64,000 nt of DNA from the IMG/VR virus record IMGVR_UViG_3300042875_000410. The stretch is one strand, 5' to 3'. Numbering within the stretch: position 1 is the stretch's first letter; each line of letters begins with the position of its first letter. The notes below the pieces were generated by a model that was given only the letters and a program-made list of their open reading frames with translations, was not told where the DNA came from and did no database searches. This document shows positions 20,916 through 43,485 of the stretch, piece by piece. The stretch is from a virus (lineage: Duplodnaviria; Caudoviricetes). The position numbers and the translations under genes were made by a program.

Positions 20916-20921
20916 AATGTT

Positions 20922-21323: not shown

Positions 21324-21496
21324 TACTGTGCTTTAACCTTTGTGGTTTTTTTAGCGGGTGCCGATTTTTCAGGAAGATTATCTTTCATCATATTATAGAT
21401 TTCCCATAACTTCCAGTCAATGCTTTCGAGCAATTTAAATAATTTTTCTTCTGAACTTTGTTGATTTGCTTGTTTTGTAACTTTAGAGTTAATCAT
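21323..21496 (-). CDS. Small hypothetical protein (57 aa, absent from the ORF track)
   Basis: Manual translation MINSKVTKQ...SIDWKLWEIYNMMK...KVKAQ; overlaps both flanking genes. Confidence 0.6.
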   Translation of the reverse strand: MINSKVTKQANQQSSEEKLFKLLESIDWKLWEIYNMMKDNLPEKSAPAKKTTKVKAQ

Positions 21497-22279: not shown

Positions 22280-22280
22280 A

Positions 22281-22484
22281 TTATTCCTTAAAATAACTTT
22301 CCATTATGTCCAACTTGTCTTGATATTCAGCAATCAATGCTACTTCTTTTTCAATAGCATCCATTAAGTCAGTATGGTCATGTAGTGCCATGGGATTGCT
22401 CAACATAATGTCTACATTCATTTTGTGCTTGAAAATGTGTGCTTTAAAATGGTGTTTTAATACGCTAATAATTTCTTGTCTCAT
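22281..22484 (-). CDS. Hypothetical protein
   Basis: AGGAG SD; ATGA overlap. Confidence 0.5.
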   Translation of the reverse strand: MRQEIISVLKHHFKAHIFKHKMNVDIMLSNPMALHDHTDLMDAIEKEVALIAEYQDKLDIMESYFKE

Positions 22485-25277: not shown

Positions 25278-27950
25278 TCAATCAAAGGAAAATAATTTGC
25301 CAAAGGTATTGTCTTGGGTAGTTGATTCTAAATCCCAATCCAGCACACCGATGAGGTTGTCCAGTTTGTTGTTAATGATAGCAGTTTCCATTTCGCTGTG
25401 ATCGAATGGCAGGTCTTGGAACCATTTAGGTAATCGCATCTCATCGACCGGATAAGCAATGGATGTGTAGCCTAATGGATTGTCTTTAACTTTACAAACA
25501 ATGACCTTCATGCCGTCAACAATGCCCATTGAGTATTTGTCACCGTTCATGCGTTTTAGCGTATTCCAGTTAATAGCAGCACGGACATGCCCTGGCATAT
25601 TAGCCTTGCCTTGTTTAGCTTCCTTGGCTTGATACTCTGTGATGTTGTTAGCTCGTTTGGGACTACCCTTCTCCCAACCTGGACGGGCTTTGAACTCAGT
25701 CCGGAACGCACTGATCATTTCTAGAATTTCTTGTTCCTCTGCACCATTCAGTACTCGAGTAAGAACTTCTTCTAAGAACTTTTGCATAAATTCGGGAGTA
25801 TCACTACGCTTAAGATCTAGACCCATAGCTTTGATCTTACCTGGCTTACCGTCAGTGTCCTGTCTCTTACCATCTTTGTCGTAATACAATACTGCATAAC
25901 GTTTCTTGGTAATGAACAGGCCTTTAACAGCAACAATTTCTCGCCCACCTTTGATAACCTCACCGCGTGTCTTTGGGCAATGAAATGCATCCAACATGAA
26001 CTGCGGGAATGTTGCATTTACGTTTTCGGCAATCTGATCATACAACTGAATAACAACATCTCTATCCCAAGGGATTAGCTTTTTGTTAATATCAGTCTTT
26101 AGCGTATTATAAGCTGAGAAGTAGCAACTGTCAGTATCACCGTAGATAATACTCTTACCTACGTGATCAAACTCACCGGTAATCATTTCATTGACTTTGC
26201 CTGCCATATGCTTGGCAATCTGCCTGCCAACAAGTGTAGTGGACTGCCCAATACGCTTATCAAAGAATCTGCAACCAGGATTCAAAATAGCACCATACAA
26301 ACTATTCAAGTTAATCTTCTTGACCAACTGTCGCTTGTCCCAATACTCTTCTTCGATCTTGTTACCTGCTTCGATAGCTGCCTTGAGCTTCTTCTGCATA
26401 TCTTTACGTTCAGCATACCATCGCTTTAACAGTCCAGGAATAATGCCTTCATGTTCATAGGTAAAGATAGTGCCGTTGGCGCTTAACATCCAAGGTTGAT
26501 TACTGTCAAAGATTAACTTATATGCTTCAGCTGCACTCATAATATCACTTTGATCGTTTTCCCAATCAACTGTAATTTCAAATGCACGGTCCTGTTGCAT
26601 AACTGCTTCATACTCTAGGCTACCAAACATACCTTCCCAAGCCGCCGCAAATGATTTTTTATGAACCATCATTTGTTCATCGATATGTTGATCTGTCCTG
26701 TCCTGACGTAACTGACCGATGATAGTTTCTGGACCCATGTTGAGCGCACGAATAGCTGACGGATACAATGAGTTAATGTCAATAGATCCGATCCAGTCGT
26801 GGATACCTTTCTTGGGATATGCAACATAAGCACCTGCTGCCTGATTATTTGCGTCCTCGTCACGTTTGGCACGATTGGGCACAATGAGACCACGGTGGTG
26901 GGCTTCGTTTACAATAGCCTGTTCAGTTACAGCAACTGCACCCATTGTGGTCTGTAATAGCACCGTACATTCGTGTGCCAGTGTGTTAGCAAGATCGATA
27001 AACTTTAGTTTCTTATCCAGCTTGTCTAACAATGCGGTATCTTGTCTGTTGTACTCAATGAACTTACGGAAGTCATTGTTATATAACTGATCAAGTGTAC
27101 CTTCATAGTGAGTCTTGCTCTCGCCTACTTCCATCTCTCCAATGGCATCCAGTCGGTAAGTGTGTCGCTCTTCATATGTGTATTTGCGGTACAGCTCGAG
27201 ACTGTCCAGATGAACACGACCAACCAGATCATAAGTAACAGCCGCTTTTCCATATTTTTCGTACTCTCTCTTCTTGGGAAATTGACCCCACAGACAAAAT
27301 CTACGAGTGTCTTCTTTACTCAGTGCTTTGATAACTCTGTTAACTGTGTAAGGGATATCATAGCCTTCACTGTTCCATCCACTGAGAATGTCAGCATCTT
27401 GAATGAGATCCAAAAACGCATCTAACATCTCTGCTTCAGTTTCAAACAGATGTGTATTAGGAAAGTCCTTAACTAACGCTGTTGCTTGCTCCATTGTCAG
27501 GGTCTTTGGAGGAACAGCAAAGCAGACCAGTGTGTCTAACCATTGTAGGTGAACAGCAATCGATGTAATAGGCATGAAAGCATCCTCGGGGGTGCTATAA
27601 CCTCTTTCAGGATCAAAGTCCACCTCAATGTCGAAGAACGCCACATTGAGTTTAGGCGGTTCGTGATTGAGATAGTTTTCTTCTAGGGTTTTGAATACAG
27701 TGTTGATGTCTGATTCATACAGTCTGTGGCTGCTGTGGATCCGTTGTTCTTTTTGAAAGTCTTTGTAGGACCTTGTGACAACTTTATTTAGATTTTCACC
27801 GTAAATTGATTTGTATTTTCCGCGTTGATCGGGATAATAAAATGTATATCTTGCAGGAAACTCCTGAAAGATTCTGCCTTTCTTTAGATCACGCTCAACG
27901 ACATGCACAATGTCTTTGTCGCGATCCCACATGGCATCGACGTAGCTCAT
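25278..27950 (-). CDS. Family B DNA polymerase (T4 gp43-like); probable start is the ATG at 27950
   Basis: Exo I FDIEVD, Exo II WNSEGYDIPY, Exo III YNRQD; pol motifs DINSLYPS, KINLNSLYG, YGDTDS; AAGGAG SD precedes MSYVDA. Confidence 0.97.
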   Translation of the reverse strand: MSYVDAMWDRDKDIVHVVERDLKKGRIFQEFPARYTFYYPDQRGKYKSIYGENLNKVVTRSYKDFQKEQRIHSSHRLYESDINTVFKTLEENYLNHEPPKLNVAFFDIEVDFDPERGYSTPEDAFMPITSIAVHLQWLDTLVCFAVPPKTLTMEQATALVKDFPNTHLFETEAEMLDAFLDLIQDADILSGWNSEGYDIPYTVNRVIKALSKEDTRRFCLWGQFPKKREYEKYGKAAVTYDLVGRVHLDSLELYRKYTYEERHTYRLDAIGEMEVGESKTHYEGTLDQLYNNDFRKFIEYNRQDTALLDKLDKKLKFIDLANTLAHECTVLLQTTMGAVAVTEQAIVNEAHHRGLIVPNRAKRDEDANNQAAGAYVAYPKKGIHDWIGSIDINSLYPSAIRALNMGPETIIGQLRQDRTDQHIDEQMMVHKKSFAAAWEGMFGSLEYEAVMQQDRAFEITVDWENDQSDIMSAAEAYKLIFDSNQPWMLSANGTIFTYEHEGIIPGLLKRWYAERKDMQKKLKAAIEAGNKIEEEYWDKRQLVKKINLNSLYGAILNPGCRFFDKRIGQSTTLVGRQIAKHMAGKVNEMITGEFDHVGKSIIYGDTDSCYFSAYNTLKTDINKKLIPWDRDVVIQLYDQIAENVNATFPQFMLDAFHCPKTRGEVIKGGREIVAVKGLFITKKRYAVLYYDKDGKRQDTDGKPGKIKAMGLDLKRSDTPEFMQKFLEEVLTRVLNGAEEQEILEMISAFRTEFKARPGWEKGSPKRANNITEYQAKEAKQGKANMPGHVRAAINWNTLKRMNGDKYSMGIVDGMKVIVCKVKDNPLGYTSIAYPVDEMRLPKWFQDLPFDHSEMETAIINNKLDNLIGVLDWDLESTTQDNTFGKLFSFD

Positions 27951-27960
27951 ATAGTTCTCC

Positions 27961-27980
27961 TTACCGCTTATGGCCGGCAA
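27961..27980 (-). promoter_or_regulatory. Hairpin abutting the polymerase SD (candidate translational operator)
   Basis: UUGCCG-GCCAUAAG-CGGUAA directly followed by GGAGAACUAUAUG. Confidence 0.4.
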
Positions 27981-28961: not shown

Positions 28962-28990
28962 AGTATACAGGGTTGTGATTACAAGGTCAA
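28962..28990 (-). promoter_or_regulatory. Sigma70-type promoter
   Basis: TTGACC-17 nt-TATACT, then AGGAGA SD. Confidence 0.65.
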
Positions 28991-29608
28991 ACTTTTTTCT
29001 GTGTATTCTGCCCTAGTCCAACCAAGAAGAAAGTTTGCTTTCCAATCATTTTGTGCAAAGCCAGTAAGGTTTTTCCATTGATCTCTGTGTGCTAGAACCT
29101 GTCGAGATGCATCACGCCAGTCAGTGTGTCGTACCTTAAAATCAAACATCTGCATAGATTTTAGGAATGTGTCGTAGTCGTAGTTGTCATACTCGACGTG
29201 CAGTACTTCATAGATATTACCAGCGTCATCTACTGCATCTAATGCAAAATCAAATCCCCATTTCTGTGGAGTTTTCAATAACCACTCTGCCTCGGGAATA
29301 TCCTTTTTTATTTTTCTTAGTTGATGTTCTGCGTAGTCCTCGTATCTGCAACGATGCAGGATCAATGAGTGATCTAGTATTAGACCTATATCGTTATATT
29401 CTAGAGCAAACCAAGGTTCTTGCCAGCAGCGATGATTAAGTATAGGATGGTCTATAGGATGGTGCATCATCCCGTAATATTTCTGTTCTGCTTGATTTAA
29501 TTCAAATCCGTCTTTGTCATAGAATTTAAAATCTTCTGCAACAACATTGTAGATGGGCTCACTACAGACAGGATTTGATACTACCGGTACATCAAATCTT
29601 TTAAACAT
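28979..29608 (-). CDS. Hypothetical protein
   Basis: Globular aromatic-rich ORF; no family recognised. Confidence 0.55.
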   Translation of the reverse strand: MFKRFDVPVVSNPVCSEPIYNVVAEDFKFYDKDGFELNQAEQKYYGMMHHPIDHPILNHRCWQEPWFALEYNDIGLILDHSLILHRCRYEDYAEHQLRKIKKDIPEAEWLLKTPQKWGFDFALDAVDDAGNIYEVLHVEYDNYDYDTFLKSMQMFDFKVRHTDWRDASRQVLAHRDQWKNLTGFAQNDWKANFLLGWTRAEYTEKSLTL

Positions 29609-29821: not shown

Positions 29822-29845
29822 CGGTTCCTGCTCAATTACTTTTTT
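29795..29845 (-). promoter_or_regulatory. Candidate programmed -1 frameshift signal
   Basis: TC-A-AAA-AAG-TAA followed by the perfect 9-bp inverted repeat TTGAGCAGG...CCTGCTCAA. Confidence 0.55.
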
Positions 29846-32529
29846 GATTTCTTCTTTTCAGGAAGACCTTTGTGCTTAGTTGATGCAAAGTCTTTGGCAT
29901 CTTTCTTGCCCATATCCTTGGCTACTTTGGCAACTTCTTTACTGGCAGGCTTTTCACCTTTTTGTGCAGCATGAACCATGCCCATAAACTTTTGTTGCTG
30001 CTTGCTTACTGCTTTTTCACTCAGGACCTGTTGCAATGAGTGGGCAAGACTTTCCATATATACATCAACTTCGGATACTGACTGTTCCATACTTCTCAAC
30101 TCACCAAGTGTGTCGGAAACAAAGTCTTCATCATAGCTGATCAAATATCTTGCCTCCTTTGGCGACATGTTTAATTCTTTGACCAGCACCATGCCTATTG
30201 CGTTGATCAATTCATTTTCTTGTGCAGGATCGTATTTGATTCCACGATCTGATAGAATTTTAGCAACTTGATAACTTGTGCGATCTTCCGGTGCTTCCGC
30301 TACACCTTGCTCACTCTCGCCTATTTCAAGTTCGCCGCGACTAGCCATTCGGTTTTGTAATTTATCCAGATTACCCGACTGCAACTGACTATCAAATTGT
30401 GGTAGCATTTGAGCAAGGGTATCAGGATCCATTTCAATATCAAATTGATTTGATAGTATCTGTTGCCAATTTAGTATTCTTCTTTTTTCTGGTGTTCCTA
30501 TAGGAGCCATGACTACTGCTTTTAGATATGCCATTGCTAAATGTGTTTTGTTTGCTCCAGAGCCTTCCGCCACACCTTGCTCAGGACTATGTCTCAGATT
30601 GGCTATGTAACCATTGGGACCAGTCCATTGATCTTTATAGTCTTGCCATTCGTTCTGACTCCATGCTATAGGGAACATTTGCCAGGCCCACATTCCATGG
30701 GTATTAAACTCGCTAGAAAATTCCTGTATGTCTGCCAGTGTAATACCCGAGGTCTTGGTCTGTTTAGCAACATCAATCAACCAGTGCGCCATGGTTTCGC
30801 CACCGTCTTCGAATTCGCTTAATTTTTTTAATTTATTAAATCTATCTGCACCTTGCTTGGCAAACTCACGGCAAAGATCTTCAAGCCATTTTATAAATTC
30901 CTGACCAAATTTGGCCAATGCAGTCTCGGGGTCGCTGCCTGTTCTTGCAGTGAGGGACTTATTCAAATTATCTACACCTTGCCTGGCACCAGCACCGCCT
31001 GTGATCTGTCCCATCATGCTGTCAAATCTCTCATCGCCTGTTGCCTCCGCCACACCTTGCTTTTTATTTCGCAACAGGCCCACCTGTTTTAGTTTTGGGT
31101 CCATGAAGTAATAAACATTCCCGTCAGCACCCACAGCATGACTTTTACTTGCAGTGTATCCAGTTCTTAATTCATCAGGAGTTGCAGGTCTTACTTGTTT
31201 CACTGATTCACGCAAATCGCCTTCTTCAGGGTCTTGGCCAGTTTTTACAAAATGTTCAAGTTCTTCAAGTGAATAACCAACTTGATCGGCTAGGTTTTGT
31301 TTGTCTTCTGGCGACATTCTGCGCCATCCACTTCTTATTGTTTGTAGTTGTAGGGACAACTCGTGGCGTCTGGTCATTTCGTTACCAGCATTAGTTACTG
31401 GACCGTTTAAAATGTTTCTGATTTCTGAAGTATAGTATGCGTCTGCTTTACCTGCCATTTGACTACCGTACTGTTGACCTAATGTTTTCCCACCAAACTT
31501 TTTGACTTGTTGTGCGCTTAATACTTTGGCAAGATGCGTAAAATCTTTTCCGTTTCTTATTGCGGCTACTAGTTTTTCTTCGGCCGCTTCAATCCATTCT
31601 TGGAATTCAGGATCTGCTTGAACGGCCAAGTTGTCTACTTCTTGATTATAGAAGTCAATTGATTGTTGGTGCCCATCTGTACCTGCGGCATTAGCTGGCA
31701 TGTTTACACTTGAGCTACCAAATGCCTCCGCCACACCTTGCTTTGGCAAATCACTTAATTGATCCGGAATATAGTCTTCATCGTAACTTAATAAGTAACG
31801 AATTTGTTTTGAACTCATTCCTGCTTTCTTCATGTATTGAGCCATCAATCCGATGAGTTCATCTTCTTTATCTGGGCTGTAGGTAATGCCGTCTTGAGCC
31901 ATTTGCTGTCCAATGGACAACTTAGTTTGATCCGCTGGGATACTCAAATACTGGTCGCCTGGCATACTGGCTCCACCTTCCTCTACACCTTGCTGCTCTG
32001 CTTTTGCTTTGGCCTCATCTCTAGTACGACTATAACCTTGGGCTATTGCTAGTTGTACTTGATTAGGGTAGACAGACGTTTTGAACATTTTACCATCTTT
32101 AACAACATACCAGTCTGTTGGATCTAAGTCGTGTCGTTCATCATCGCCGCGATTGAATGCACCACCTACTCCACGAAATGGCATGCCTGCTTCTGCTAAC
32201 TTTGATTTTAGTTGATCAATTTTTGTGCGTAGAGATTCCATATAGGGCTTTTTATGTTTTGCAGCGCCCTGCTTTTGTTCTTTTTTCTTATCCTTGTGTG
32301 CGCCTGCACCACTGGACTTGGCATTCTTAGCAACAAAATTACGGGGAGTAGTTGCAGGAACTTTGTCTTTACCTGCTTCTTGTGCCAAGATATTTCCGCG
32401 CTTTTGGACTTTGCCTAACGAGCTCGGTGCTGTAGCAACACTACCTGAACCGGTTGCACCTGCTGTCATTGACTCTAATGTATAGCGAGTTTCGTTATTG
32501 CTTTTTGATTTTTTAAATTCGTTGTTCAT
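29836..32529 (-). CDS. 897-aa modular protein (candidate head-packaged polyprotein), five QGV(A/E)E linkers, C-terminal DUF3008-like module
   Basis: QQGVEEG, KQGVAEA, KQGVAEA, EQGVAEG, EQGVAEA separate unrelated segments; C-terminal KAVSKQQQKF...DFASTKHKGLP resembles DUF3008. Confidence 0.6.
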   Translation of the reverse strand: MNNEFKKSKSNNETRYTLESMTAGATGSGSVATAPSSLGKVQKRGNILAQEAGKDKVPATTPRNFVAKNAKSSGAGAHKDKKKEQKQGAAKHKKPYMESLRTKIDQLKSKLAEAGMPFRGVGGAFNRGDDERHDLDPTDWYVVKDGKMFKTSVYPNQVQLAIAQGYSRTRDEAKAKAEQQGVEEGGASMPGDQYLSIPADQTKLSIGQQMAQDGITYSPDKEDELIGLMAQYMKKAGMSSKQIRYLLSYDEDYIPDQLSDLPKQGVAEAFGSSSVNMPANAAGTDGHQQSIDFYNQEVDNLAVQADPEFQEWIEAAEEKLVAAIRNGKDFTHLAKVLSAQQVKKFGGKTLGQQYGSQMAGKADAYYTSEIRNILNGPVTNAGNEMTRRHELSLQLQTIRSGWRRMSPEDKQNLADQVGYSLEELEHFVKTGQDPEEGDLRESVKQVRPATPDELRTGYTASKSHAVGADGNVYYFMDPKLKQVGLLRNKKQGVAEATGDERFDSMMGQITGGAGARQGVDNLNKSLTARTGSDPETALAKFGQEFIKWLEDLCREFAKQGADRFNKLKKLSEFEDGGETMAHWLIDVAKQTKTSGITLADIQEFSSEFNTHGMWAWQMFPIAWSQNEWQDYKDQWTGPNGYIANLRHSPEQGVAEGSGANKTHLAMAYLKAVVMAPIGTPEKRRILNWQQILSNQFDIEMDPDTLAQMLPQFDSQLQSGNLDKLQNRMASRGELEIGESEQGVAEAPEDRTSYQVAKILSDRGIKYDPAQENELINAIGMVLVKELNMSPKEARYLISYDEDFVSDTLGELRSMEQSVSEVDVYMESLAHSLQQVLSEKAVSKQQQKFMGMVHAAQKGEKPASKEVAKVAKDMGKKDAKDFASTKHKGLPEKKKSKK
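30293..31993 (-). repeat. Dispersed in-frame 18-22 nt direct repeat, consensus GCAAGGTGT(G/A)GCGGA(A/G)G on the coding strand
   Basis: Copies at about 30293, 30563, 31043, 31724 and 31976 (spacings 270, 480, 681, 252, all multiples of 3); 31042-31063 and 31723-31744 are identical over 22 nt; partial copies at 34558, 34381 and 33611. Confidence 0.85.
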
Positions 32530-32891
32530 TTCTTCATCCAGTTTGCTACAGGGCTTACGGTATATGTATTGTCCAGTTCGCGACTTTCCATATCACCTTT
32601 ATTTACATCTTTATAGTTTGCACCAACTACCTTGTATGCTTGTTTAAGCATTTCTTGTTCTTCTTTACTGTAAGGATGAGTAGTTTTAGTTTTACCCGCC
32701 CAACTCTTACCATTCATTTCGATGGGGTCTTTTCCGTTGGCTCCTGCTACTGCCATGCCTAATCTATAGGATGTATAAGTGCTGTCGGCTCTTTCACCGT
32801 CCTTGTAGGTATTTAAACCACGAGTAGCCTGTTGCTGTCTCTTGGTAATTTTACCTGTTTTCATCTCAGTGATTAGTTCATTGATGCGCAT
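32526..32891 (-). CDS. Basic protein starting MRINELITE (probable start 32891), candidate internal head protein
   Basis: TAAATA 5 nt upstream of this ATG; N-terminus resembles the T4 capsid-targeting peptide. Confidence 0.55.
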   Translation of the reverse strand: MRINELITEMKTGKITKRQQQATRGLNTYKDGERADSTYTSYRLGMAVAGANGKDPIEMNGKSWAGKTKTTHPYSKEEQEMLKQAYKVVGANYKDVNKGDMESRELDNTYTVSPVANWMKK

Positions 32892-32895
32892 AATG

Positions 32896-33171
32896 TTATT
32901 TATTTCTTCCGTACCATAGTTCAAACCATGCGGGAGAACCAGATTTAATTCCATGCTCTTTCATGTATTTAGCCTTATCTACAGCACCAGATTTAACGTA
33001 ATTGGATTCTCTTACGGATGCATTGTATTCGTGCAGTCGTTCTGTAGCATTTAGCCCGCCCATATAGCTAACAGTCTTTAAGGCGTGTATAGGATCTTCC
33101 GGTGCAAGATAGCAATCGTCCGGACTGTCCTTTACCATGTTTTCGTGAGTGATGTAATACTGCTTGATCAT
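32896..33171 (-). CDS. Hypothetical protein
   Basis: ATGA overlap with the 1606-aa gene; C-terminal GIKSGSPAWFELW. Confidence 0.55.
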   Translation of the reverse strand: MIKQYYITHENMVKDSPDDCYLAPEDPIHALKTVSYMGGLNATERLHEYNASVRESNYVKSGAVDKAKYMKEHGIKSGSPAWFELWYGRNK

Positions 33172-36100
33172 TTTCTAATAAGATTTTCGATCAGTGCGCC
33201 CATAATATTTTCAACATCTTCACCTACTGGCACACACTTGTCTTTACCGTTCTCAGTACCGTTGTAGCGATAATTTTTCCAACAGGCTTTACCATCAGCA
33301 CCTTTTTTCTTAGCTTCGTCAACGGCATTCATCTTGTTTAATAGTTCCTGTGCCTTTTCAACACTGATCATATAACGACCAGTTCTATTAGGATCAGCGG
33401 CTTTTTGCAACCACTCTTTATTAAATCCTGCAGATGCTGCTGGTTTAACATCGCTAGGAGCGACCTGTGTTACATTGGGTTTGCCTGTTAAACGATTGAT
33501 ATTAGGATCATCGCCAGGTGTAACTCGAGCATTTGCTCCAGCGGACCCTAGTGCCATTGCACCTGCAAGTCCTAATCCTGCTAGTTTAGATCCAAGTCCT
33601 TCATCGACCTCTTCCGACATACCTTGCTGAAAAGATTTGAATACCACACGAGCAATTTCTTCAACATTCTTTGGAGATAGTTTTTTACCTAGCTGTTCTT
33701 TTGCCTGTTGATAGATATCGTTGATGTTTGGGTTTTCAAAGTTATTTTCGGAATCCCAATATGTAAATGATACTTCTTCACCATTTACTGTGAGTGTGTA
33801 AATATTTTGATTAACATCAGTATCTAAGTCAACGAGCTCAACGCCTTGCGTCACAGGCTTTTGAACCTGTTCAGGACCCACTACTCCCAAATACTTAACA
33901 GCATAGTCCAGTGCTCGTTTAACACCAGCTGGTCCTGCCAATGAATCAAACGCAGGCTGGCCACGTTTGAAATTGACCTGATCGCCAACTTCATCCCAGT
34001 CTCCGTGTGCTGTAATGTCTATCAACTCACGAGCCGAACCCGGAAATTCTTCAAATCGAGTCTGGCCCATTCTGCCCCACAAGTTAGGTAGGGCGGTGTG
34101 ACGACCACGTGCATCTATGTATTCATTAGTCTCTTGATCACGCACATACGCATGTACTACTGAGTGTCGGCTGATATCGTTTGAGATTTCTTCTTGTTCT
34201 TCTGGACTTAGATCGTTCCACTCATCATCATCCATTTGCATGTCCGGTGCGCCAGCAGACATGTTGTATTCCCAGATATATCCTATTGGATACCTCTTTG
34301 GATTATGCTGATTTATAGCAACGGCCAGTACCATGCATTGTCCTTCCATGTAGTCGGCTTGCGCCTCTGCTCGGTCAGCGTCTTCCGCCACATTGTAATC
34401 AGGCATAGGTCTTTGACCAGGGCGACCTTTAACTCCACGCTTCTCTGTGCTTGGTGGTTTCGTTGGAGGAACAATGTCACCCTGATTTCTATATGGCTGC
34501 GGAGCCTTTTTAGGATTGCGGACATCGATAGGAGACTGTGCTACTACGATAGGAGCACCTTCCGCCACACCTTTAGTATCGTTAGCAAACTGTTTCTTAG
34601 TTGCCTTGACAATGCCACTGAAACGCTTGTCGGCTTTTTTAGTGTTGCCTGCCTTGTCAGCAGCACTGGCTTGTGCGCCGGCAGCCTTCTTATACTGTCC
34701 TAACTTTTCATTGGACAACTCTGCAACAATCTGCTTCAATCCTGCTAACGCACGACTTTCATTAACTTTAGGGTCCATGCCTAGTTCTTTCTGACTCTGC
34801 AAATAGTCCCAAACACTGACCAACATCATCTCGGCCTTGGCAATCTTTTCTTGTCCCCACTCTGGTAAGTTGTCGTTGTTCTTGATTGTTTTTAACAAGC
34901 CATCAACAGCACGAGCCATAGTGCGTAGATTGCTCTGCGCCATTCCTGCTTCGTCGTCGTATTCACTATTGAATTCTTCTTTCTTTAAATTGCCCCAATC
35001 GTCTTTCTCGCTAGAATACTTGCGGCTATTACGATCTGCTAATGCACCTTTCTCCATCTTGGCTCTGCGCTGTTCTCTATCACTGTCGAACTTAGCATAC
35101 TTCTGTGCTTCGCGTCCTTGTGGATTGATTAGGTCTCTAACCATTTGACTGGTCGGCGCATTTTCAAACATTGGCGTTTTCTGTGTTCTAATCAATGCGT
35201 TAAATAATCTTTGTTCTGCAACCGGTACTGGTTGTGGTGCTGCTGCGGGCTGTTGAACAATGCCCATACCTTTTCTTGAGATGTCCATAAGATGTAGTAT
35301 CCAATCTTTACCTAATTGTTGTGCGTTAAATCCCTGCGCCCATACTGCATACTGCTGTTCCGGAGTAGCATTGGGATTTTTTAGAACATCGCGTAGTTTA
35401 GTAAAACTTATAGGTCGTGTTCTTGGGATAGTTTCCAAACCGACCTTAACATGCTCGTAGCCCGGAAACTTATTAACAGCCTTCATTAGCGCACCTGCGA
35501 TAGGCATGTCTTTACGATCTTCACCTACCATGATAACAATGTTGTCATACTTGGGAGGCTTGCCCGGCTGCGGACTGATCAATTCGTGTTTGACCTTTTG
35601 CATTAAACTTCCACCTTGCATTACAGCACCGATATTGTCAGCATACTGCGGATATAGTTTATGCCATGTCTGTACCTTAACGTCTGTTGGGATAGGATCG
35701 TCTGCACCCACTGCATTGCCAATAAACAGGTAAGGATCACCGCCTAATTCGTTGGCCTTCTTAACAGTTTCGTTAAACAAGTCTTCGTGTCCTAGATGTC
35801 CTGCAAAACTACCAACTGCTACCACTGCGGTCTTTAGGGGACCTTGACGTTTTGCACCCGGTTGAGCCATTTTAGCAGCCATAGCCGACTTCATCTGCTG
35901 ACTAGTGACTTTAAATATTTGACCGTTAGGCATATTAACAACAACACCTTCCATGTTGTCGCCTAGCGCATCTTTGCCTGCTAATTTAGGATTATTAATA
36001 ATAGCATCGCTTAGTGCTTGTTTAGCTTGATCGAACGCAGGCTTATTAGCTTTGTCTTTAGGATCTAAGTTTAGAATAGGATTAATAATCTTGCTGACGT

Positions 36101-37988
36101 TAATGCCTTTTTGTTCTAGATTATTACTGACAATTTTAATGTTGCTATCACTGGCTGCTAACAAACGCTTTTTGATCTTGTCAGCATCGGGTCTTTCGTC
36201 TCCTGTGCTGTATTGTTTGAATACAAAAGGCACCAGTGTCATCTGCTTGCCTAGCTTTTTAGGATCGTAAGGAATATTGACAAATTTTAGTCCTTGGTCA
36301 GTTTGTTGTGCCATGGGATTATACATCATTTCTGCTTGTACAATAGTGTCTGCAGGTAGTGATTGTATAAACTTGCTACCGGTAATCAATGCCAGTGCAT
36401 TGTCATAATTCTTTGTTCTTGCCAATGTCTCTGCATCCTGACCTTTTTCTTGACCAAAGCTGGTAAAATAACCTACATCATCTTGATACAATGGAGTAGT
36501 CACTTTGCTGGTCATGAAGAACGGACGACCACTTTGATCTTTACCGAATCGAATGCCTGCGCCGTCTACTTTCAAACTGATAGGCACACCGTCAAGTTTG
36601 CCACCATTGTCTGCAATTGCCTTGGCAATTTCTAAGAAATCTGCATTCTTCATTTCTGCTGTACTTACACGACCATCTGGCAGTCTGTTGTACAGGTGTT
36701 TGATACCTTGGCGAGCATAGTCTGGCTTTGCTGCTACTTCTGCTGCGGCATCTTCTGCTACTTCGGTACTGAGTGCATTTCCTCGTTTGGCATTGAACTG
36801 GTCTGCATAGTCCATTGCCATCTTAACTGCTTCTTGTCTTAGGCCTTGAGCATTTGGTAAGTTTAGAGGCTTAACCCCTCCACCGCCTAGCAACATAGCA
36901 TCTACTGCGGCAAACTTAACATCACGATCTCGAGCTGGATCATCTTTAGTAATCATCTGTGCTCCGGGTCCAAATAGAATGTCTAGGAATGCACGAGTTA
37001 CGGATTCAATTTGTTCAGGTTCAAACGACTTGTTCATTAGCTGTAGTGTTCCTACAAAGCTACCTTGCAAGTTTCGATCAGCAACACCACGCTTACGACC
37101 GAAGTTCATCTGGAACTGTTGGTCTAAATTTTGAATATAGTCGCGGTCTTTTGGATCCAGCAGTTGCATAACAGGAATGCCGTCTTTTTCCATATGCTGT
37201 CCTGTAGCAGGATCGATGTATGGCTTATACTTTATGCTCATGCCGCCGCCCTGAGAACTGCTGACTGCAAAACTGTAGTCGCTGTCTGTAACGGGAGCAT
37301 CACTAATCTTAACACTTTTCTTAAGTACTCGGGCTACATACTTTTCACTGGACTGTGCATGTGTTAGAGCACGGTTGATATATTTGTGGAATACACCTTT
37401 AATACCAGCAGCCATGTCATCATAGTGACTACTATGACTGTAGGCAAACCATTCAGTTGGTGCATTTGTTTTAGCGTCATACGGACCTAATTCATAATCA
37501 ACTTGAATACGAACCTGCGGATCATCTAGCAACCAAATGCTTGATAACGAACTGTTAAATCCTAAGAATGTGCCGTTGCCAACTTTCTTACCAATAATAC
37601 TCTTTAACCAAGCAGTGACTTCATCGCCCATATCCTGGTCAATCTGCGTGTCGATGTCGCCAACTTTTGTTTTCTTTAGTTTGTTTAAGAAGTCCTGTGT
37701 ATTGATTCCCTTAACATCAAAGAATTGTAAGCTGCTACCACTGAGCATCTTTCCCGATGCCAATAGTTTTGGATCCCAAATATATTTGCCGTAGGCTGCT
37801 TTAAATGATTCGTTTTGTGCAGACAATAATTCTCGCAGTTGAGCCACCATGTGATCACGGTCGTGAATCTTTAGATCAATTTCTTCTGCTTCTTGATCAG
37901 CAGCACCTTGCCAACCTGGACTTTGACTTGATACATTGCCGCCTTCGAGCAATGGTTTTTTATTTCTGATTAGGTCGAACAACTGCAT
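33168..37988 (-). CDS. 1606-aa multidomain protein: Pol-beta-like NTase, ligase-like (KxDG) NTase, HIGH-family nucleotidyltransferase, then small cassette modules including a Cys-His-Asp domain
   Basis: LSGSS (82-86) and GDID (110-113); SLKVDG K473, QAEMMY, MEGVVV, FKV; GSFAGHLGH (731-734), VGEDR, ISFTKLR; GQC1218...H1279...D1292ARG; VAE/MSE/VDE linkers. Confidence 0.7.
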   Translation of the reverse strand: MQLFDLIRNKKPLLEGGNVSSQSPGWQGAADQEAEEIDLKIHDRDHMVAQLRELLSAQNESFKAAYGKYIWDPKLLASGKMLSGSSLQFFDVKGINTQDFLNKLKKTKVGDIDTQIDQDMGDEVTAWLKSIIGKKVGNGTFLGFNSSLSSIWLLDDPQVRIQVDYELGPYDAKTNAPTEWFAYSHSSHYDDMAAGIKGVFHKYINRALTHAQSSEKYVARVLKKSVKISDAPVTDSDYSFAVSSSQGGGMSIKYKPYIDPATGQHMEKDGIPVMQLLDPKDRDYIQNLDQQFQMNFGRKRGVADRNLQGSFVGTLQLMNKSFEPEQIESVTRAFLDILFGPGAQMITKDDPARDRDVKFAAVDAMLLGGGGVKPLNLPNAQGLRQEAVKMAMDYADQFNAKRGNALSTEVAEDAAAEVAAKPDYARQGIKHLYNRLPDGRVSTAEMKNADFLEIAKAIADNGGKLDGVPISLKVDGAGIRFGKDQSGRPFFMTSKVTTPLYQDDVGYFTSFGQEKGQDAETLARTKNYDNALALITGSKFIQSLPADTIVQAEMMYNPMAQQTDQGLKFVNIPYDPKKLGKQMTLVPFVFKQYSTGDERPDADKIKKRLLAASDSNIKIVSNNLEQKGINVSKIINPILNLDPKDKANKPAFDQAKQALSDAIINNPKLAGKDALGDNMEGVVVNMPNGQIFKVTSQQMKSAMAAKMAQPGAKRQGPLKTAVVAVGSFAGHLGHEDLFNETVKKANELGGDPYLFIGNAVGADDPIPTDVKVQTWHKLYPQYADNIGAVMQGGSLMQKVKHELISPQPGKPPKYDNIVIMVGEDRKDMPIAGALMKAVNKFPGYEHVKVGLETIPRTRPISFTKLRDVLKNPNATPEQQYAVWAQGFNAQQLGKDWILHLMDISRKGMGIVQQPAAAPQPVPVAEQRLFNALIRTQKTPMFENAPTSQMVRDLINPQGREAQKYAKFDSDREQRRAKMEKGALADRNSRKYSSEKDDWGNLKKEEFNSEYDDEAGMAQSNLRTMARAVDGLLKTIKNNDNLPEWGQEKIAKAEMMLVSVWDYLQSQKELGMDPKVNESRALAGLKQIVAELSNEKLGQYKKAAGAQASAADKAGNTKKADKRFSGIVKATKKQFANDTKGVAEGAPIVVAQSPIDVRNPKKAPQPYRNQGDIVPPTKPPSTEKRGVKGRPGQRPMPDYNVAEDADRAEAQADYMEGQCMVLAVAINQHNPKRYPIGYIWEYNMSAGAPDMQMDDDEWNDLSPEEQEEISNDISRHSVVHAYVRDQETNEYIDARGRHTALPNLWGRMGQTRFEEFPGSARELIDITAHGDWDEVGDQVNFKRGQPAFDSLAGPAGVKRALDYAVKYLGVVGPEQVQKPVTQGVELVDLDTDVNQNIYTLTVNGEEVSFTYWDSENNFENPNINDIYQQAKEQLGKKLSPKNVEEIARVVFKSFQQGMSEEVDEGLGSKLAGLGLAGAMALGSAGANARVTPGDDPNINRLTGKPNVTQVAPSDVKPAASAGFNKEWLQKAADPNRTGRYMISVEKAQELLNKMNAVDEAKKKGADGKACWKNYRYNGTENGKDKCVPVGEDVENIMGALIENLIRK

Positions 37989-38365: not shown

Positions 38366-39070
38366 TTACCCTTTTAACTTGGCTAAACCCAAAAACTCTA
38401 GCCCTTTAATGTACATCCAACCTATGTCAAATTCCCACCACTTCTGACTAAACTTAGGATTTGCGATATCTGCATGGTGATTATTGTGCAATTCCTCACC
38501 GCCGATCCATATGCCCCATGGCATTAAATTTTTACTCTTATCTTTAGTGTCAGTATTGCGATATCCCCACCAATGTGCTAGTCCGTTTATTACACCTGCT
38601 GCAAAAAAAGGTATCCACAACATCTGTACACCCCATACTAAGAATCCCCACCAACCAAATAACAACACGTCTATAACCAACATTACGAGAATACCCAATC
38701 GGTGATGGGGTGTATAAAGTGTACGTTCAATCCAGTCTTTAGGAGTACCCATTCCGTATTTCATAACCATGTCAGCATCACTGCCTGCTTGATTATAATA
38801 CTTGACTCCTCTAAATACTAAATTCCAAATACCAAACACATGCGGACTGTGTGGATCACCTTCTACGTCAGTATTTTGATGATGTTTACGATGTACTGCC
38901 ACCCATTGTTTAGTGGTCATACCTGTAGTGAGCCATAACCAGAAACGCATAGCGTGTGCCAGTACTGGGTGAAATTCAACGCCTCTGTGACTTTGACTGC
39001 GATGTAGATATAGTGTAACACACATTATAGTAATGTGTGTAAACAGTAACGTTATTAAAATTAAATTCAT
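38366..39070 (-). CDS. Delta-9-type membrane fatty acid desaturase
   Basis: His boxes HRSQSH, HRKHH and HNNHH; DPHSP; WWEFDIGW; transmembrane segments. Confidence 0.93.
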   Translation of the reverse strand: MNLILITLLFTHITIMCVTLYLHRSQSHRGVEFHPVLAHAMRFWLWLTTGMTTKQWVAVHRKHHQNTDVEGDPHSPHVFGIWNLVFRGVKYYNQAGSDADMVMKYGMGTPKDWIERTLYTPHHRLGILVMLVIDVLLFGWWGFLVWGVQMLWIPFFAAGVINGLAHWWGYRNTDTKDKSKNLMPWGIWIGGEELHNNHHADIANPKFSQKWWEFDIGWMYIKGLEFLGLAKLKG

Positions 39071-40126: not shown

Positions 40127-42523
40127 TTATACTGCTGTAAATGTTTTAGTCAACGGAACTAATGTAATCGCAGTTGATATTTTGTTAGTTGAACCATATT
40201 GGAATATTGGATCAGCATACAGTACTGTGTTTGTACCAGTACCGTTGATAGCACGATTTGAACCATCTCCAACAGGTATGTTGAATGTACACACACCAAA
40301 CTGCATGGATGCTGAACCACTCATTGTAATACCGTGAGTATCGGACCCTGCTCCAGTGTTGTTAAGAATAACTTCACCCATACCCCATTGTACTGAACCA
40401 CTTAGGGTAATAACAGAGCCAGTGTTGGCATCCAATGAACTTCTCAACATAGTTCCTAATGAATCGTTTGCTTGGTTAAGTACTTGTCCTGTACCGTTAG
40501 TTTCAAGATTGTTTATACTACAAAAGCCACGTTGGATATCTATTAGATATACAGAGCCACCGGCTCTAGCCATGGTACAATCATTCATTTCCACTCTGCT
40601 ACCTGTGCCAGTGTTATCCGCATAAACACAACTCTTAGTGGCGTTGCCTTGATAGCAGTATACATCGTTTAGGTAAAGTTTTGCTGGATTAGATCCAGTT
40701 AACTCGATACTGTGATACGTATCGTCGGTGCGAACGGCAATATTAAATAGGCCAAATCTATTAACGTTTATAGCGTTTGTGCCGGTGTTTGCCGGAGTGA
40801 TAGTAACATGTCCCTCAATCCAAATAGGTACATGGCCGGCATCGGGAGTTTCGCCACAGATAAAAATATTTCCACGAGTCAACGCCACATTCTCTGTGAT
40901 AGAACTCTTTAGGAAAATAAACTGTGGGTTATCAACGATAGAACCGTTTATGTCAATTACTAAACTAGTATCAGCAATCCTTGCTTCAATATAGGCCAAT
41001 GCCGACGCGATATTTTTGAAAGGTTTGTGTAAACTGCCATCAGCGGTGTATGTGCCCGTATTAGTTGGGTCGACAATCCATTGACTATCCGCTGTGTCGA
41101 TATATACACTAACGCCTTCACTGTCGAGGATATCGCCCGGTACTGTTAGAGTACCATCATTGCCAAATTCCCAAGTATTGCCACCAAGAACATCACCATT
41201 GGTGTAGCCACCTGTGATTACCTGTACAACTCCAGACTGTGTGGTTTCTGTGTAAGCACGGCCGCCTGTGATTCTAACATCGCCACCATAACTACTGCCT
41301 GCGGCATTCTCAACAGTTACATCGCCGCCGGTGATTTCCACAAATCCAGGATTGCCCGTGGTAGAAGTGTTAAAGTGAGCAACATTGCCCCCTTCAATCC
41401 TAACATAGCCACCTGTGTCGTTAAGGCCTTCGCCGCCGCGTAATTTAACATCGCCACCACTGCCGCCACCTTGGCCCCATCCTTCAGTGTTGCCGTTGGT
41501 GTCACCTCCAACTCCGCCCCAAATGTAAACATCGCCGCCTTCACCTGTGGTGCTGGTTGAGCCGTAGCCACGCTGGCCTTGGATCACAATACGTTGAGCG
41601 TTGGTGTTGTTTTCTGTAGCTGTCGGTCCTGTGACGATAACTTGATTTTCGCTGTCGTTGCTTAACTGTAGTGTTGGACCACTAAGGGTGGTAGTAACAT
41701 CGTAGCCCATATTAGATTTAGTTGGCAGAGTCAAGCCTTCCGGTAGTTCTAGACTGCCATCAAATCTAAATGTCCATGTGTAGTCAGTTGACGTGGTCTC
41801 TGTAGTAATCTCAATTCCGCTATTGGCAGGCATGTCAGCTTGGTTTACAAGTGTTAATTGAAATTCATTGCCTCCTGATATGTAAACATCGTCTGCGGCG
41901 TCTAACGTAATATCTCTTCCTGAACGAATAGTTATATCATCGTCGCCAGTGGCCATGCCAAAGTAACTGTTACTTTCACCAACACCGTTAACTATGTCCA
42001 ACCCAATGGTGTTGATGTAGTTGTAATTAAAATCAATGTCATCTATTGTTATAGGCTCTGGGTGTGCTGTAGCCAGTGTTATGGTGTACAATGGTGGATT
42101 ACCACTAGAGATTACATTGGTCACTGTTGATGCGAGATCATCAGTGTTGGGATTTATCACTAGGTTGATGTTGCTGTAATTATAGGGAAAGGCAAGATTG
42201 CCATCAAAATACTCCACCCATCTTGACAACAGATCATCGAGATACAGTCCAATATTATCTCCCATCTGTACAGCAATAGATCCAGTGGTATAGGCAAAAG
42301 TGTGTTCACTACCGTCGTTAAAATTATCTGAATAAGTTTTTTCTGCTGTTATTTTATTACCAGTACCACCAATGGATTCTAATCCGCTCCATACCGTTGT
42401 GCCATCACCAACTCTCAGTTGATTATTAGTAGTGTCGTAGCCTGCTTCACCTAAGGCCAGTACCGGATCGTTAGTAGTCCAATTAGCGGCTGTATCTCTA
42501 CGTAGTTTGATTCTTGTTGTCAT
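40127..42523 (-). CDS. Tail fibre / receptor-binding protein with Mtd_N-like N-terminus and Gly-rich GGxVxIxGG repeats
   Basis: RIKLRRDTAANWTTNDPVLALGEAGYDT...VGDGTTVWSGL; beta-helix-like C-terminus. Confidence 0.75.
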   Translation of the reverse strand: MTTRIKLRRDTAANWTTNDPVLALGEAGYDTTNNQLRVGDGTTVWSGLESIGGTGNKITAEKTYSDNFNDGSEHTFAYTTGSIAVQMGDNIGLYLDDLLSRWVEYFDGNLAFPYNYSNINLVINPNTDDLASTVTNVISSGNPPLYTITLATAHPEPITIDDIDFNYNYINTIGLDIVNGVGESNSYFGMATGDDDITIRSGRDITLDAADDVYISGGNEFQLTLVNQADMPANSGIEITTETTSTDYTWTFRFDGSLELPEGLTLPTKSNMGYDVTTTLSGPTLQLSNDSENQVIVTGPTATENNTNAQRIVIQGQRGYGSTSTTGEGGDVYIWGGVGGDTNGNTEGWGQGGGSGGDVKLRGGEGLNDTGGYVRIEGGNVAHFNTSTTGNPGFVEITGGDVTVENAAGSSYGGDVRITGGRAYTETTQSGVVQVITGGYTNGDVLGGNTWEFGNDGTLTVPGDILDSEGVSVYIDTADSQWIVDPTNTGTYTADGSLHKPFKNIASALAYIEARIADTSLVIDINGSIVDNPQFIFLKSSITENVALTRGNIFICGETPDAGHVPIWIEGHVTITPANTGTNAINVNRFGLFNIAVRTDDTYHSIELTGSNPAKLYLNDVYCYQGNATKSCVYADNTGTGSRVEMNDCTMARAGGSVYLIDIQRGFCSINNLETNGTGQVLNQANDSLGTMLRSSLDANTGSVITLSGSVQWGMGEVILNNTGAGSDTHGITMSGSASMQFGVCTFNIPVGDGSNRAINGTGTNTVLYADPIFQYGSTNKISTAITLVPLTKTFTAV

Positions 42524-42536
42524 TTATCTGCTCCGA

Positions 42537-42743
42537 TTATGCTGTTCCACCATCTAAGGTGATGTCTGTTGCTGTAGTGTAGGTCCAGGCTGAATCGCCA
42601 CCTTCTACATAGTATTTTGCTTGATTGTTGGTGATTGCCAGGCTAGACGACCAACGATCGCCGGTCCATGTGTAGGTTACTGCGTTGGTAGCCACATAAC
42701 TTTGGCCCACTGTGGGCGATGAGGGAAATGTTATTGCTGTCAT
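42537..42743 (-). CDS. Small virion accessory protein
   Basis: FPSSPTVGQSY...YTWTGDRW motif typical of fibre caps; TAAATA 6 nt upstream. Confidence 0.5.
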   Translation of the reverse strand: MTAITFPSSPTVGQSYVATNAVTYTWTGDRWSSSLAITNNQAKYYVEGGDSAWTYTTATDITLDGGTA

Positions 42744-42760
42744 AATGTGTATTTACCCTA

Positions 42761-43468
42761 TCATAGTCCGAATCTTGCCCGTAGAGCCGCATAGTTCTGT
42801 AGTTGTTCTGCTTCAGTTAGCACTCTATTGTATAGTAGGATAACAGCAAGTTTGCCTTTGAATCCTCTACTAAAGTAACCTTCCCCCCATACATAAGGAG
42901 TAGATCCCCATGATTGATTGGTTCTGGCGGCTCCTAGTATATTCCAACCTGTGACCAAATTCCCTGCTCCTGGAATAACAGTACCGTTTATGTAATAGTT
43001 AGTTGCTGTTAGATATGCCCAGTCAGCGTTGTTGCCTGGATTTTGTATACTCCATGGACTTGATCCGTTAGCATTACCAAATCGCATGGTACGGTCAGCA
43101 TCAACACCTAGTCCATATGCTAGATTAGCATCATCTACATTGTAACTGAAATCAGGTTGAAATACCAGTGTACAATCTTGATAGTTCTGTGATAGGCTTG
43201 ATGTCATACAATTTGCCGAGTCGCCATCAAATATAAAGTAACTAGAAGTACCGCTGTTGACAAATCCCACGGTCCCATTTAATGAAGCATCAGCACCTTG
43301 ACCACTTATATCAAACCATGTGGCAGATTGCGAGCCTGGATAACTGGCTGTGATGCCTGCATCTAGATGAGCGATAAGGCCGTCTGTGACAATGGGCGGA
43401 GGCGGCGTGTGACCCCTCAGTGTAACACCGTTGCTGATAGTCTGTGCTGATCTAATAGTTATTGACAT
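42761..43468 (-). CDS. ConA/LamG-like lectin domain virion protein
   Basis: VTDGLIAHLDAG...SYPG...WFDISG; FKGKLAVILLYNRVLTEAEQLQNY. Confidence 0.8.
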   Translation of the reverse strand: MSITIRSAQTISNGVTLRGHTPPPPIVTDGLIAHLDAGITASYPGSQSATWFDISGQGADASLNGTVGFVNSGTSSYFIFDGDSANCMTSSLSQNYQDCTLVFQPDFSYNVDDANLAYGLGVDADRTMRFGNANGSSPWSIQNPGNNADWAYLTATNYYINGTVIPGAGNLVTGWNILGAARTNQSWGSTPYVWGEGYFSRGFKGKLAVILLYNRVLTEAEQLQNYAALRARFGL

Positions 43469-43485
43469 ACTTTTATTTTACCGTT

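Follow-up and report, generated by a model that had tools for sequence, protein, structure and literature searches.

An apparently undescribed family of mosaic, putative cargo proteins joined by a DNA-conserved linker in uncultured giant phages related to T4 and Rak2

The internal proteins IPI-III and Alt of phage T4 carry an N-terminal capsid-targeting sequence that ends in hydrophobic-x-Glu and is removed by the S77 protease gp21; IPII and IPIII, for example, begin with MKTYQEFIAE. Residues 8 and 10 of this sequence govern its processing, which is blocked by Asp at position 10 (PMC9026906). The loci are hypervariable, injection of their products along with the DNA is assumed, and every cargo is encoded separately and receives one or two cuts. 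In phiKZ and SPN3US, many head-internal proteins of the inner body and ejection type are also cut after Glu, at redundant sites; the enzymes gp175/gp245 cut at S/A/G-x-E, and the substrates are products of separate genes and not of cassette arrays. The cutting of one translation product at repeated short sites is familiar from the Q/G sites of the picornavirus 3C protease (here and below, a slash in a peptide marks the predicted or known cut). Polyproteins of that type belong to RNA viruses and consist of essential proteins in fixed order.

Two further systems concern the joining and exchange of modules. The polyvalent proteins of phages and conjugative elements (Iyer, Burroughs, Anand, de Souza and Aravind 2017, PMC5512222) have many unrelated domains (2 to 15) per polypeptide, extreme mosaicism, a predicted packaging and delivery with the DNA, a catalogued set of domains and often a peptidase that processes the protein itself; the word "linker" does not occur in the text of that paper, and its passages on these proteins describe no DNA-level conservation. 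T4-like genomes undergo motif-mediated modular shuffling that involves PeSL promoter-terminator cassettes (PMC2839356, PMC4122927), and glycine-rich motifs take part in the modular shuffling of gp38 adhesins (PMC3157838). In both cases variable modules are bordered by short conserved motifs in the DNA and are exchanged at or near them; PeSLs are intergenic, and the glycine-rich motifs of gp38 are structural parts of a single domain.

In this study, we examine two neighboring ORFs, P0001 and P0002, in a 64-kb stretch of phage DNA (the window), which belong to a large and apparently undescribed family of mosaic proteins, putatively cargo, in uncultured giant phages. They resemble the T4 internal proteins in having hydrophobic-x-Glu N-terminal peptides and hypervariable loci and in belonging to a lineage with a T4-type protease and capsid protein, but differ in that up to about ten unrelated cargos would share one chain, in the near-identical internal linker, and in a second kind of address, a capsid-protein-like leader. 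Like polyvalent proteins they combine unrelated domains in one polypeptide that evolves as a mosaic, whereas their processing would be carried out in trans by the head protease; searches of Pfam, NCBIfam and PDB sequences found neither the polyvalent domain repertoire nor a peptidase in P0001 or P0002. Assignment to the phiKZ lineage is contradicted by the T4-type head genes of relatives and by the DNA polymerase of the window, which is closest to those of Rak2-like, Atu_ph07 and Phosso phages. As in the shuffling systems, a conserved DNA motif stands at the borders of modules whose content and order differ among relatives; unlike PeSLs, all copies are in frame within coding sequence, and unlike the gp38 motifs they join independent domains and also resemble a protease site. 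In contrast to picornavirus-type polyproteins, the predicted cargo is variable and accessory, and the virus is a dsDNA phage. The preliminary description of this DNA knew of no such system, which is too strong for the general idea, since the T4 internal proteins, Alt and the polyvalent proteins cover it between them; for the array architecture and the uniform, DNA-conserved, in-frame linker we found no description.

Table 1. Positions of the two ORFs and their parts in the window
Feature	Coordinates	Strand	Remarks
P0001, 897-aa cassette polyprotein (predicted)	29836..32529	-	shared leader, six cassettes and DUF3008-like tail
P0002, 1606-aa protein	33168..37988	-	capsid-targeting-like peptide, ~940-aa conserved block, then ~seven cassettes
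P0001 family leader, residues 1-113	32191..32529	-	conserved in most homologues
P0001 leader residues 12-53, capsid-protein-like	32371..32496	-	BLASTP and hhalign
P0001 linker 1, QGVEEG, residues 180-185	31975..31992	-	
P0001 linker 2, QGVAEA, residues 264-269	31723..31740	-	DNA CAAGGTGTGGCGGAGG
P0001 linker 3, QGVAEA, residues 491-496	31042..31059	-	
P0001 linker 4, QGVAEG, residues 651-656	30562..30579	-	
P0001 linker 5, QGVAEA, residues 741-746	30292..30309	-	
P0001 C-terminal DUF3008-like basic tail, residues 833-897	29839..30033	-	
P0002 N-terminal peptide MQLFDLIRNKKPLLE/G	37944..37988	-	T4 capsid-targeting form
P0002 residues 16-942, enzyme-like domains	35163..37943	-	
P0002 EYDDEAGM cassette, residues 1004-1077	34758..34979	-	KVNE/S at its end
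P0002 KGVAEG linker, residues 1139-1144	34557..34574	-	same DNA core as P0001
P0002 cassette, residues 1203-1383	33840..34382	-	
P0002 QGMSE/EVDE/G, residues 1455-1464	33597..33626	-	
Small gene between P0001 and P0002	32526..32891	-	

Five QGV(A/E)E(G/A) linkers divide the 897-residue protein into pieces of 184, 84, 227, 160, 90 and 152 residues, as had been noticed from the sequence at the outset. In P0002 a single KGVAEG is accompanied by a decayed copy, QGMSEE, and by several borders of the hydrophobic-x-Glu kind; the decay of QGMSE is visible in the DNA as 2 mismatches in 16 nt. When the whole 64 kb was translated in six frames, GV[AE]E occurred seven times, six of them inside P0001 or P0002. 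The 16-nt DNA core of the linker, with up to 3 mismatches allowed, is present in 7 copies in the window against 0.48 expected, and all seven lie in frame on the coding strand.

The linkers coincide with the limits of homology. The ends of BLAST matches between P0001 and 119 homologues cluster at residues 184, 268, 495, 655 and 745, with a further cluster near 113, at KLAE/A. Module borders were taken from these end points; single-linkage clustering of modules merged them into one large cluster. In P0002, for which eight border motifs had been proposed, most do fall at homology breakpoints: KVNE/S (1077), KGVAE/G (1143), NVAE/D (1202), QGMSE/EVDE/G (1459/1463) and AVDE/A (1558), while PLLE/G (15) is the end of the capsid-targeting-like peptide. 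The exception is EVAE/D (412), which may not be a shuffling border because residues 8-938 form a block that is collinear in some relatives; this motif also lies past the point, near residue 366, where the stand-alone homologue found in cultured phages ends. Because the modules that flank a linker turn up separately in other proteins, some as stand-alone genes, the objection that linkers might fall inside folded domains finds no support, and on these alignments the linkers are true module borders. Structure prediction adds little to this, as mosaicism caused query-anchored MAFFT alignments of fragments to misalign most rows and P0001 was folded as a single sequence: the AlphaFold model, of low confidence throughout (mean pLDDT 41, pTM 0.22), places three linkers in coil and two at helix ends.

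QGVAEG-type linkers are present in hundreds of metagenomic proteins, from phages of roughly 260-345 kb, and the number, content and order of modules all differ among these proteins. Homologues share 8-37% of the P0001 query at 60-95% identity. Module order is not fixed even between close relatives, as a relative with an 81% identical polymerase has two cassettes in swapped order. The P0002 cassette of residues 1203-1383 is 95% identical in protein and 94.6% in DNA to its counterpart in one relative, where the remaining modules reach no more than 53-59% identity and the cassette lies on the opposite side of the adjoining Pro-rich cassette. The EYDDEAGM cassette recurs in more than 40 family proteins in differing contexts. 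A megablast search with the region matched none of 50,697 phage records, and in tblastn of P0001 against cultured phages the DUF3008 tail alone found matches, in cyanophages; therefore neither leader nor array occurs in any cultured phage of that collection. Residues 1-366 of P0002 match a stand-alone gene in Campylobacter and Vibrio phages, and residues 31-686 are matched by three adjacent genes of a Xanthomonas phage.

We asked what the linker conserves, using 452 linker-like hexamers from the 119 homologues for the peptide and 45 linkers on 7 contigs, found via protein matches, for the codons. Glu stands before the predicted cut in 98.5% of the hexamers, with Asp only twice, and Val or Met stands two residues ahead of that Glu in 91-96%; Gln and the residue after the predicted cut are more variable than these. 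The pattern of substitution, as read from the hexamers, is of the T4 gp21 (hydrophobic-x-Glu) type. The resemblance to a prohead-protease site that had been proposed for the linker thus stands for the T4 enzyme and falls for the phiKZ type, as the relevant position holds Val or Met and not Ser, Ala or Gly. The DNA is conserved as well. Val is encoded by GTG in 38 of the 45 linkers (background 12%), Ala by GCG in 43 (8%) and Gly by GGT in 43 (41%), whereas GAA and GAG are used for Glu at background. Retention of the rare GTG and GCG codons in almost every copy suggests that the linker is additionally an in-frame recombination joint. A gp21-type site would not require Gln, Gly and the synonymous codons to be as conserved as they are; as far as alignments can indicate one, this surplus suggests a further function of the sequence as DNA.

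The same excess conservation is an argument for a different view, namely that these are uncleaved beads-on-a-string proteins, polyvalent or cytoplasmic, in which the linker is uniform solely as recombination homology and resembles a protease site by coincidence. DNA homogenization alone could explain much of the uniformity, given how strongly the synonymous positions are held and that Gln and Gly are kept although neither is a known requirement of gp21-type proteases. Both genes adjoin replication genes, away from the head module, and some polyvalent proteins, in the treatment given them in PMC5512222, are packaged or transferred uncut. This view accounts poorly for the Glu: its near-invariance and the scarcity of Asp, while GAA and GAG vary freely, argue for protein-level selection on the very residue that the protease needs. 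Moreover, decayed P0002 borders that lack the DNA motif retain hydrophobic-x-Glu followed by a small residue, and stand-alone cassettes have targeting-like peptides of their own. We regard uncleaved proteins as unlikely, though deserving of some weight.

We give very little credence to the view that the 18 nt act on RNA or translation, as a rare-codon pause, an internal GTG start or the target of a nuclease or regulator, with the peptide as a by-product. It draws on the rarity of GTG and GCG codons here and on the occurrence of AGGTG, and sometimes GGAG, in the motif, but leaves unexplained why all copies of the motif lie in frame on the coding strand and why amino-acid substitutions follow protease logic. 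An internal start at the linker was rejected as the main explanation, as the replacement of GTG by GTA in about 15% of copies makes such a start unlikely; a RegB-like GGAG target was also rejected, GGAG being present in a minority of copies only.

Cleavage in the head would call for a prohead protease, which the preliminary description proposed to look for. The window is without head genes, and so the protease is shown in relatives only: three of them (G004, G006 and G008) encode a Peptidase_S77 protease of the gp21 type and a Gp23-type capsid protein. Of these, G008, a genome of 338.5 kb (97% complete), is syntenic with the window, has a 63% identical DNA polymerase and carries its polyproteins in the same slot; its head genes comprise the S77 protease, scaffold, portal and Gp23-type capsid protein, the last with ALLE/G, ALLE/G, ILE/N and LAE/N in its N-terminus. 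No capsid, portal or protease match was found in G007, a 343-kb contig with linkers; we read its missing head module as located off the linear contig and not as a counter-example. The string TATAAATA, a T4 late-promoter sequence, showed no enrichment in the window.

The N-termini of the family members also direct attention to the head. P0002 begins with a peptide of the T4 form (about 10-20 residues ending in hydrophobic-x-Glu), and its start ...NKKPLLE/G shares KPLLEG with T4 gp23, ...NKWKPLLEGEG. Targeting-like starts of family members and stand-alone cassettes include MRIKQLLE/S, MKIDNIIAE/S, MRAREFISE/S and MLLRQLFE/S, the third of which belongs to a stand-alone version of the 1203-1383 cassette. 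For the small gene between the two ORFs, the likely true start gives MRINELITE/M, which is capsid-targeting-like, and its homologue in G008 starts with MKIKDIIME/D. The P0001 leader, which contains YTLE/S (16-20), a DUF7230-like basic stretch, KPYME/S (94-99) and KLAE/A (110-114), fits the T4 form only partly: the first candidate site is T-L-E or V-L-E, so that the third residue before the cut is not always hydrophobic. Leader residues 12-53 instead resemble residues 35-77 of the capsid protein of related giant phages (BLASTP E 0.004; hhalign probability 83%, E 8.5e-6), which comprise an x-x-E site followed by a TAGATSAGxVAT segment, and the Glu of YTLE/S is aligned with that of LAE/N in the capsid protein.

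No module of P0001 could be assigned a function with confidence in searches of Pfam, PHROGs, NCBIfam and PDB sequences, and Pfam searches of nine large homologues returned only domains of unknown function and sub-threshold matches. The P0001 tail scores 18.1 bits against DUF3008 (PF11450), below the 24-bit Pfam cut-off, but matches phrog_30268 at E 7e-24 and is 75% identical to ORF93, a DUF3008 protein of cyanophage S-SCSM1 that was detected in the S-SCSM1 virion by proteomics. The proteome of that virion also holds an NMNAT-like enzyme with a targeting-like start, weakly similar to P0002 residues 704-826. As leads only, a language-model search suggests that the N-terminal part of P0002 may be nucleotidyltransferase-like and may be followed by a KxDG-motif segment and a cytidylyltransferase-like (HxGH) segment.

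These observations bear on where a cut would take place. The window encodes an S8 subtilase (2628-4295) and a Lon-like ATP-dependent protease (51240-53531), and the Lon-like gene flanks the polyprotein region both here and in G008, so that either enzyme, or one of the host, might cut the polyprotein outside the capsid to give products that act in the cell and are not injected. We know of no after-Glu cleavage specificity for these enzymes. N-termini of targeting-like form, a leader resembling the capsid protein and homologues located in virions each indicate the head. We consider cleavage outside the capsid improbable.

From these comparisons we infer the following course of packaging, cleavage, injection and recombination. 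An N-terminal address, in the form of a capsid-targeting peptide of the T4 kind or of a leader that reproduces the segment of the capsid protein round its LAE/N-type site, would bring the whole chain into the assembling prohead. There the gp21-type S77 protease would cut after Glu at the V-A-E/G linkers, and also at the weaker hydrophobic-x-Glu borders, to free separate proteins of 5-60 kDa that would remain within the head and may accompany the DNA into the host. The 18-nt linker, CAA GGT GTG GCG GAA GGC, would at the same time provide an in-frame stretch of DNA identity at which recombination could add, delete, reorder and exchange cassettes with the reading frame intact. As a whole, this account of address-led mosaic polyproteins, cut by the head protease and recombined at linkers, is to our mind the best explanation of both ORFs, and one that we think somewhat probable. 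It lends partial support to the original proposal that the two are head-packaged polyproteins cut into delivered effectors. More tentatively, and as a conjecture we would not yet call probable, the 18-nt element may be both a cut site, through which one capsid address could load and release any string of cargo proteins, and a portable joint for the exchange of cassettes inside one giant phage or among several that co-infect, in a polyprotein-level, integron-like system with an address derived from the capsid-protein segment round a candidate maturation site.

If the proposed course of packaging and cleavage is true, giant T4-like phages pack many accessory proteins with a single address and a single protease, and do so evolvably. 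In metagenomes, hundreds of proteins already bear the linker, which would then serve as a marker of capsid cargo and would disclose a large pool of unknown small proteins that are likely to be active as infection begins. The combination of address, linker and cassette would offer a ready design for bringing foreign proteins into capsids, as an extension of the method based on the T4 capsid-targeting sequence. Conservation of the linker at the DNA level provides a testable case of a coding motif that may be maintained by, or for, recombination.

The two cassette polyproteins, P0001 and P0002, sit in a single co-oriented gene string that runs from a family B DNA polymerase to the tail-fibre genes, beyond which lies a Lon-like protease (see table). 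The polymerase is nearest to those of the giant phages Phosso, Atu_ph07 and the Rak2/CBB group (43-50% identity), and a DNA-level search of cultured phages with the polyprotein region gave no match. The Lon/Clp-like protease adjoins a peptide deformylase gene, and this pair, kept in the related giant-phage contigs G008 and G007, borders the variable polyprotein region. The string is headed by a fatty-acid desaturase family gene with 64-65% identity in both contigs, but located elsewhere there. A subtilase among tail-fibre-like genes was weighed only as an alternative processing enzyme, and a QueE-like gene with its neighbours suggests a 7-deazaguanine DNA-modification cluster.

Positions of the polyproteins and of other features discussed
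Feature	Position	Strand	Remark
P0001	29836-32529	-	897 aa
P0001 leader, residues 12-53	32371-32496	-	similar to residues 35-77 of the capsid protein in related giant phages
P0002	33168-37988	-	1606 aa
142-aa ORF as listed	32526-32954	-	true start probably the second Met, ~32891
209-aa ORF	28979-29608	-	downstream of P0001
Family B DNA polymerase	25278-27980
Tail-fibre genes	40127-50106
Lon/Clp-like ATP-dependent protease	51240-53531	-	phrog_4871, E 3e-250
Peptide deformylase	53515-54024	-
Peptidase_S8 subtilase	2628-4295	+	Pfam E 3e-29
Fatty-acid desaturase family gene	38366-39070	-	Pfam E 2e-12
QueE-like radical SAM gene and neighbours	16937-24139	-	phrog_2076
Capsid protein compared with leader	L212:9954-11138	-	residues 35-77: x-x-E site, then TAGATSAGxVAT

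Linkers occur in P0001 as QGVEEG at residue 180 and as QGVAEA, QGVAEA, QGVAEG and QGVAEA at residues 264, 491, 651 and 741, and in P0002 as KGVAEG at residue 1139; across the 64 kb, read in all six frames, GV[AE]E has a single further copy. A 16-nt DNA core, allowing ≤3 mismatches, is present in 7 copies versus 0.48 expected, all in frame and on the coding strand. These positions and counts confirm that the linker recurs in both proteins, as the preliminary description held. QGMSEE of P0002 is one of the 7 matches and is therefore a decayed linker copy.

The linkers coincide with the borders of exchangeable modules. A protein search with P0001 returned 380 relatives, each covering just 8-37% of it, often at 80-95% identity, and nearly all with several QGVAEG copies at changing spacing. 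The BLAST end points cluster at residues 184, 268, 495, 655 and 745, and also at ~113 (KLAE↓A, the arrow marking a predicted cut after Glu), the end of a leader common to most members. In P0002, residues 8-938 are collinear with long ORFs of some relatives; a stand-alone gene of Campylobacter and Vibrio phages corresponds to residues 1-366, and residues 31-686 have Xanthomonas phage matches spread over three adjacent genes. Tentative labels for this N-terminal half, drawn from weak matches and language-model similarity, are nucleotidyltransferase-like, RNA-ligase-like and cytidylyltransferase-like. The C-terminal 660 residues are split into cassettes bordered by KVNE↓S, KGVAE↓G, NVAE↓D, QGMSE↓EVDE↓G and AVDE↓A. 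At 95% identity, the cassette at 1203-1383 stands out in one relative (polymerase 81% identical), whose other shared modules reach only 53-59%; there it and the neighbouring Pro-rich cassette stand in reversed order, so the order of modules can change. Modules of the polyproteins recur as stand-alone genes, so that a linker cannot fall inside a single folded domain. The quality of the AlphaFold model obtained for P0001 was too low for use.

Conservation of the linker extends to its DNA. In the window, the linker Ala is GCG in 5/5 copies versus 8% of Ala codons, and Val is GTG in 4/6 versus a 12% background. Among 45 linkers from 7 contigs found via protein matches, whose sites are non-independent so that p-values overstate, and whose flanking modules are unrelated, GTG appears in 38/45, GCG in 43/45 and GGT in 43/45 (GGT background 41%). 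The simplest reading of these sequences is that junctions would be made and homogenised by recombination inside the linker; shuffling at conserved motifs has precedents in T4-like genomes (PMC2839356, PMC4122927, PMC3157838). The linker Glu codon tracks background usage in the same 45, and its drift while Glu stays argues that protein-level selection also acts. In 452 hexamers with ≤2 mismatches to QGVAEG (shuffled control, 38), the Glu before the cut is kept in 98.5% (Asp twice), Val two residues before it in 91% (replaced mostly by Met), the preceding Gly in 91% (Ser, Asp), Ala in 90% (Glu, Ser, Thr), Gln in 72% (Glu, Lys, Arg) and the Gly after the cut in 64% (Ala, Glu, Asp, Thr), a pattern compatible with the predicted cleavage.

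The exact 17-nt linker is found in at least 120 IMG/VR contigs, several of them 260-343 kb long. G008, one of these contigs (338.5 kb, 97% complete), is syntenic with the window, its polyproteins occupying the same slot between polymerase and Lon-like protease. Its head module has genes for a portal, an acidic core protein, an S77-family protease (Peptidase_S77), a scaffold and a capsid protein of Gp23 type, and recurs in two more giant phages. Judged by these genes, the linker-bearing lineage is one with T4-type head maturation. The capsid proteins start M..ALLE↓G/S..ALLE↓G..ILE↓N..Y/H-L-A/K-E↓S/N-ATAGAT..., a row of predicted hydrophobic-x-Glu sites of the kind cut by T4 gp21; gp21, gp175 and gp245 all cleave after Glu (PMC5694885; PMC9026906). 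G007 (IMGVR_UViG_3300032268_000986; 342,865 bp, rated 99% complete) has linkers and, in common with the window, replication genes (its polymerase is 67% identical). No capsid protein, portal or S77 protease was detectable in it; either it is less complete than estimated or it has head genes that cannot be recognised.

Two kinds of capsid address can be proposed. P0002 begins MQLFDLIRNKKPLLE↓G; the T4 record has MTIKTKAELLNKWKPLLEGEG at the start of gp23 and MKTYQEFIAE at that of IPII/IPIII. The first ten residues of IPIII suffice for T4 head incorporation and for packaging fused foreign proteins, and processing of this peptide is governed by residues 8 and 10, Asp at 10 blocking it (PMC9026906). 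Like starts occur in other family members and stand-alone cassettes (MRIKQLLE↓S, MKIDNIIAE↓S, MRAREFISE↓S, MKTTDFINSYTE↓D, MLLRQLFE↓S) and in ~10 further G008 genes, four at the polyprotein locus. Starting at its second Met, the 142-aa ORF would begin MRINELITE↓M and no longer overlap the 91-aa ORF upstream; its G008 homologue begins MKIKDIIME↓D. A minimal case of the address-linker-cassette grammar is a 302-codon minus-strand ORF of the IMG/VR sequence L200, which joins the targeting-like start MLLRQLFE↓S to an NMNAT-like GRFNPPHxGH enzyme, a QGVAE↓G linker and a Pro-rich cassette 90% identical to P0002 residues 1144-1199. The 209-aa ORF, with YNVVAE↓D at residues 20-26 (a near-match to the P0002 border NVAE↓D), may be another substrate.

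The highly conserved P0001 leader differs from the P0002 peptide. Its match to the capsid protein has modest statistics (BLASTP E 0.004; profile comparison probability 83%, E 8.5e-6); the Glu of its YTLE↓S aligns with that of the capsid protein's LAE↓N, and TAGATSAGxVAT is common to both. We read the leader as probably copied from the part of the capsid protein that surrounds LAE↓N; it may be a second, capsid-protein-derived address.

Evidence from another phage bears on a virion location: mass spectrometry of CsCl-purified particles of the T4-like cyanophage S-SCSM1 detected ORF93 and ORF91, and NMNAT-like proteins recur across cyanophage virion proteomes (PMC9602691). ORF93 is a 69-aa DUF3008 protein 75% identical to the P0001 tail; ORF91, an NMNAT-like enzyme starting MKSFLQFLKE, has weak similarity to P0002 residues 704-826.

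The earlier proposal, that P0001 and P0002 are head-packaged and cut by the prohead protease, is thus supported in part, by module borders at linkers, changing order, the T4-type head module of relatives, N-termini that resemble T4 capsid-targeting sequences and the virion homologues of two modules in S-SCSM1. The string QGVAEG in the sense of a cassette linker was not found in the literature searched. The polyprotein system would work like T4 internal proteins and Alt, and overlaps with the 'polyvalent protein' concept (PMC5512222). Three features set it apart: a uniform in-frame linker, the conservation of that linker at the DNA level, and a leader resembling the capsid protein.
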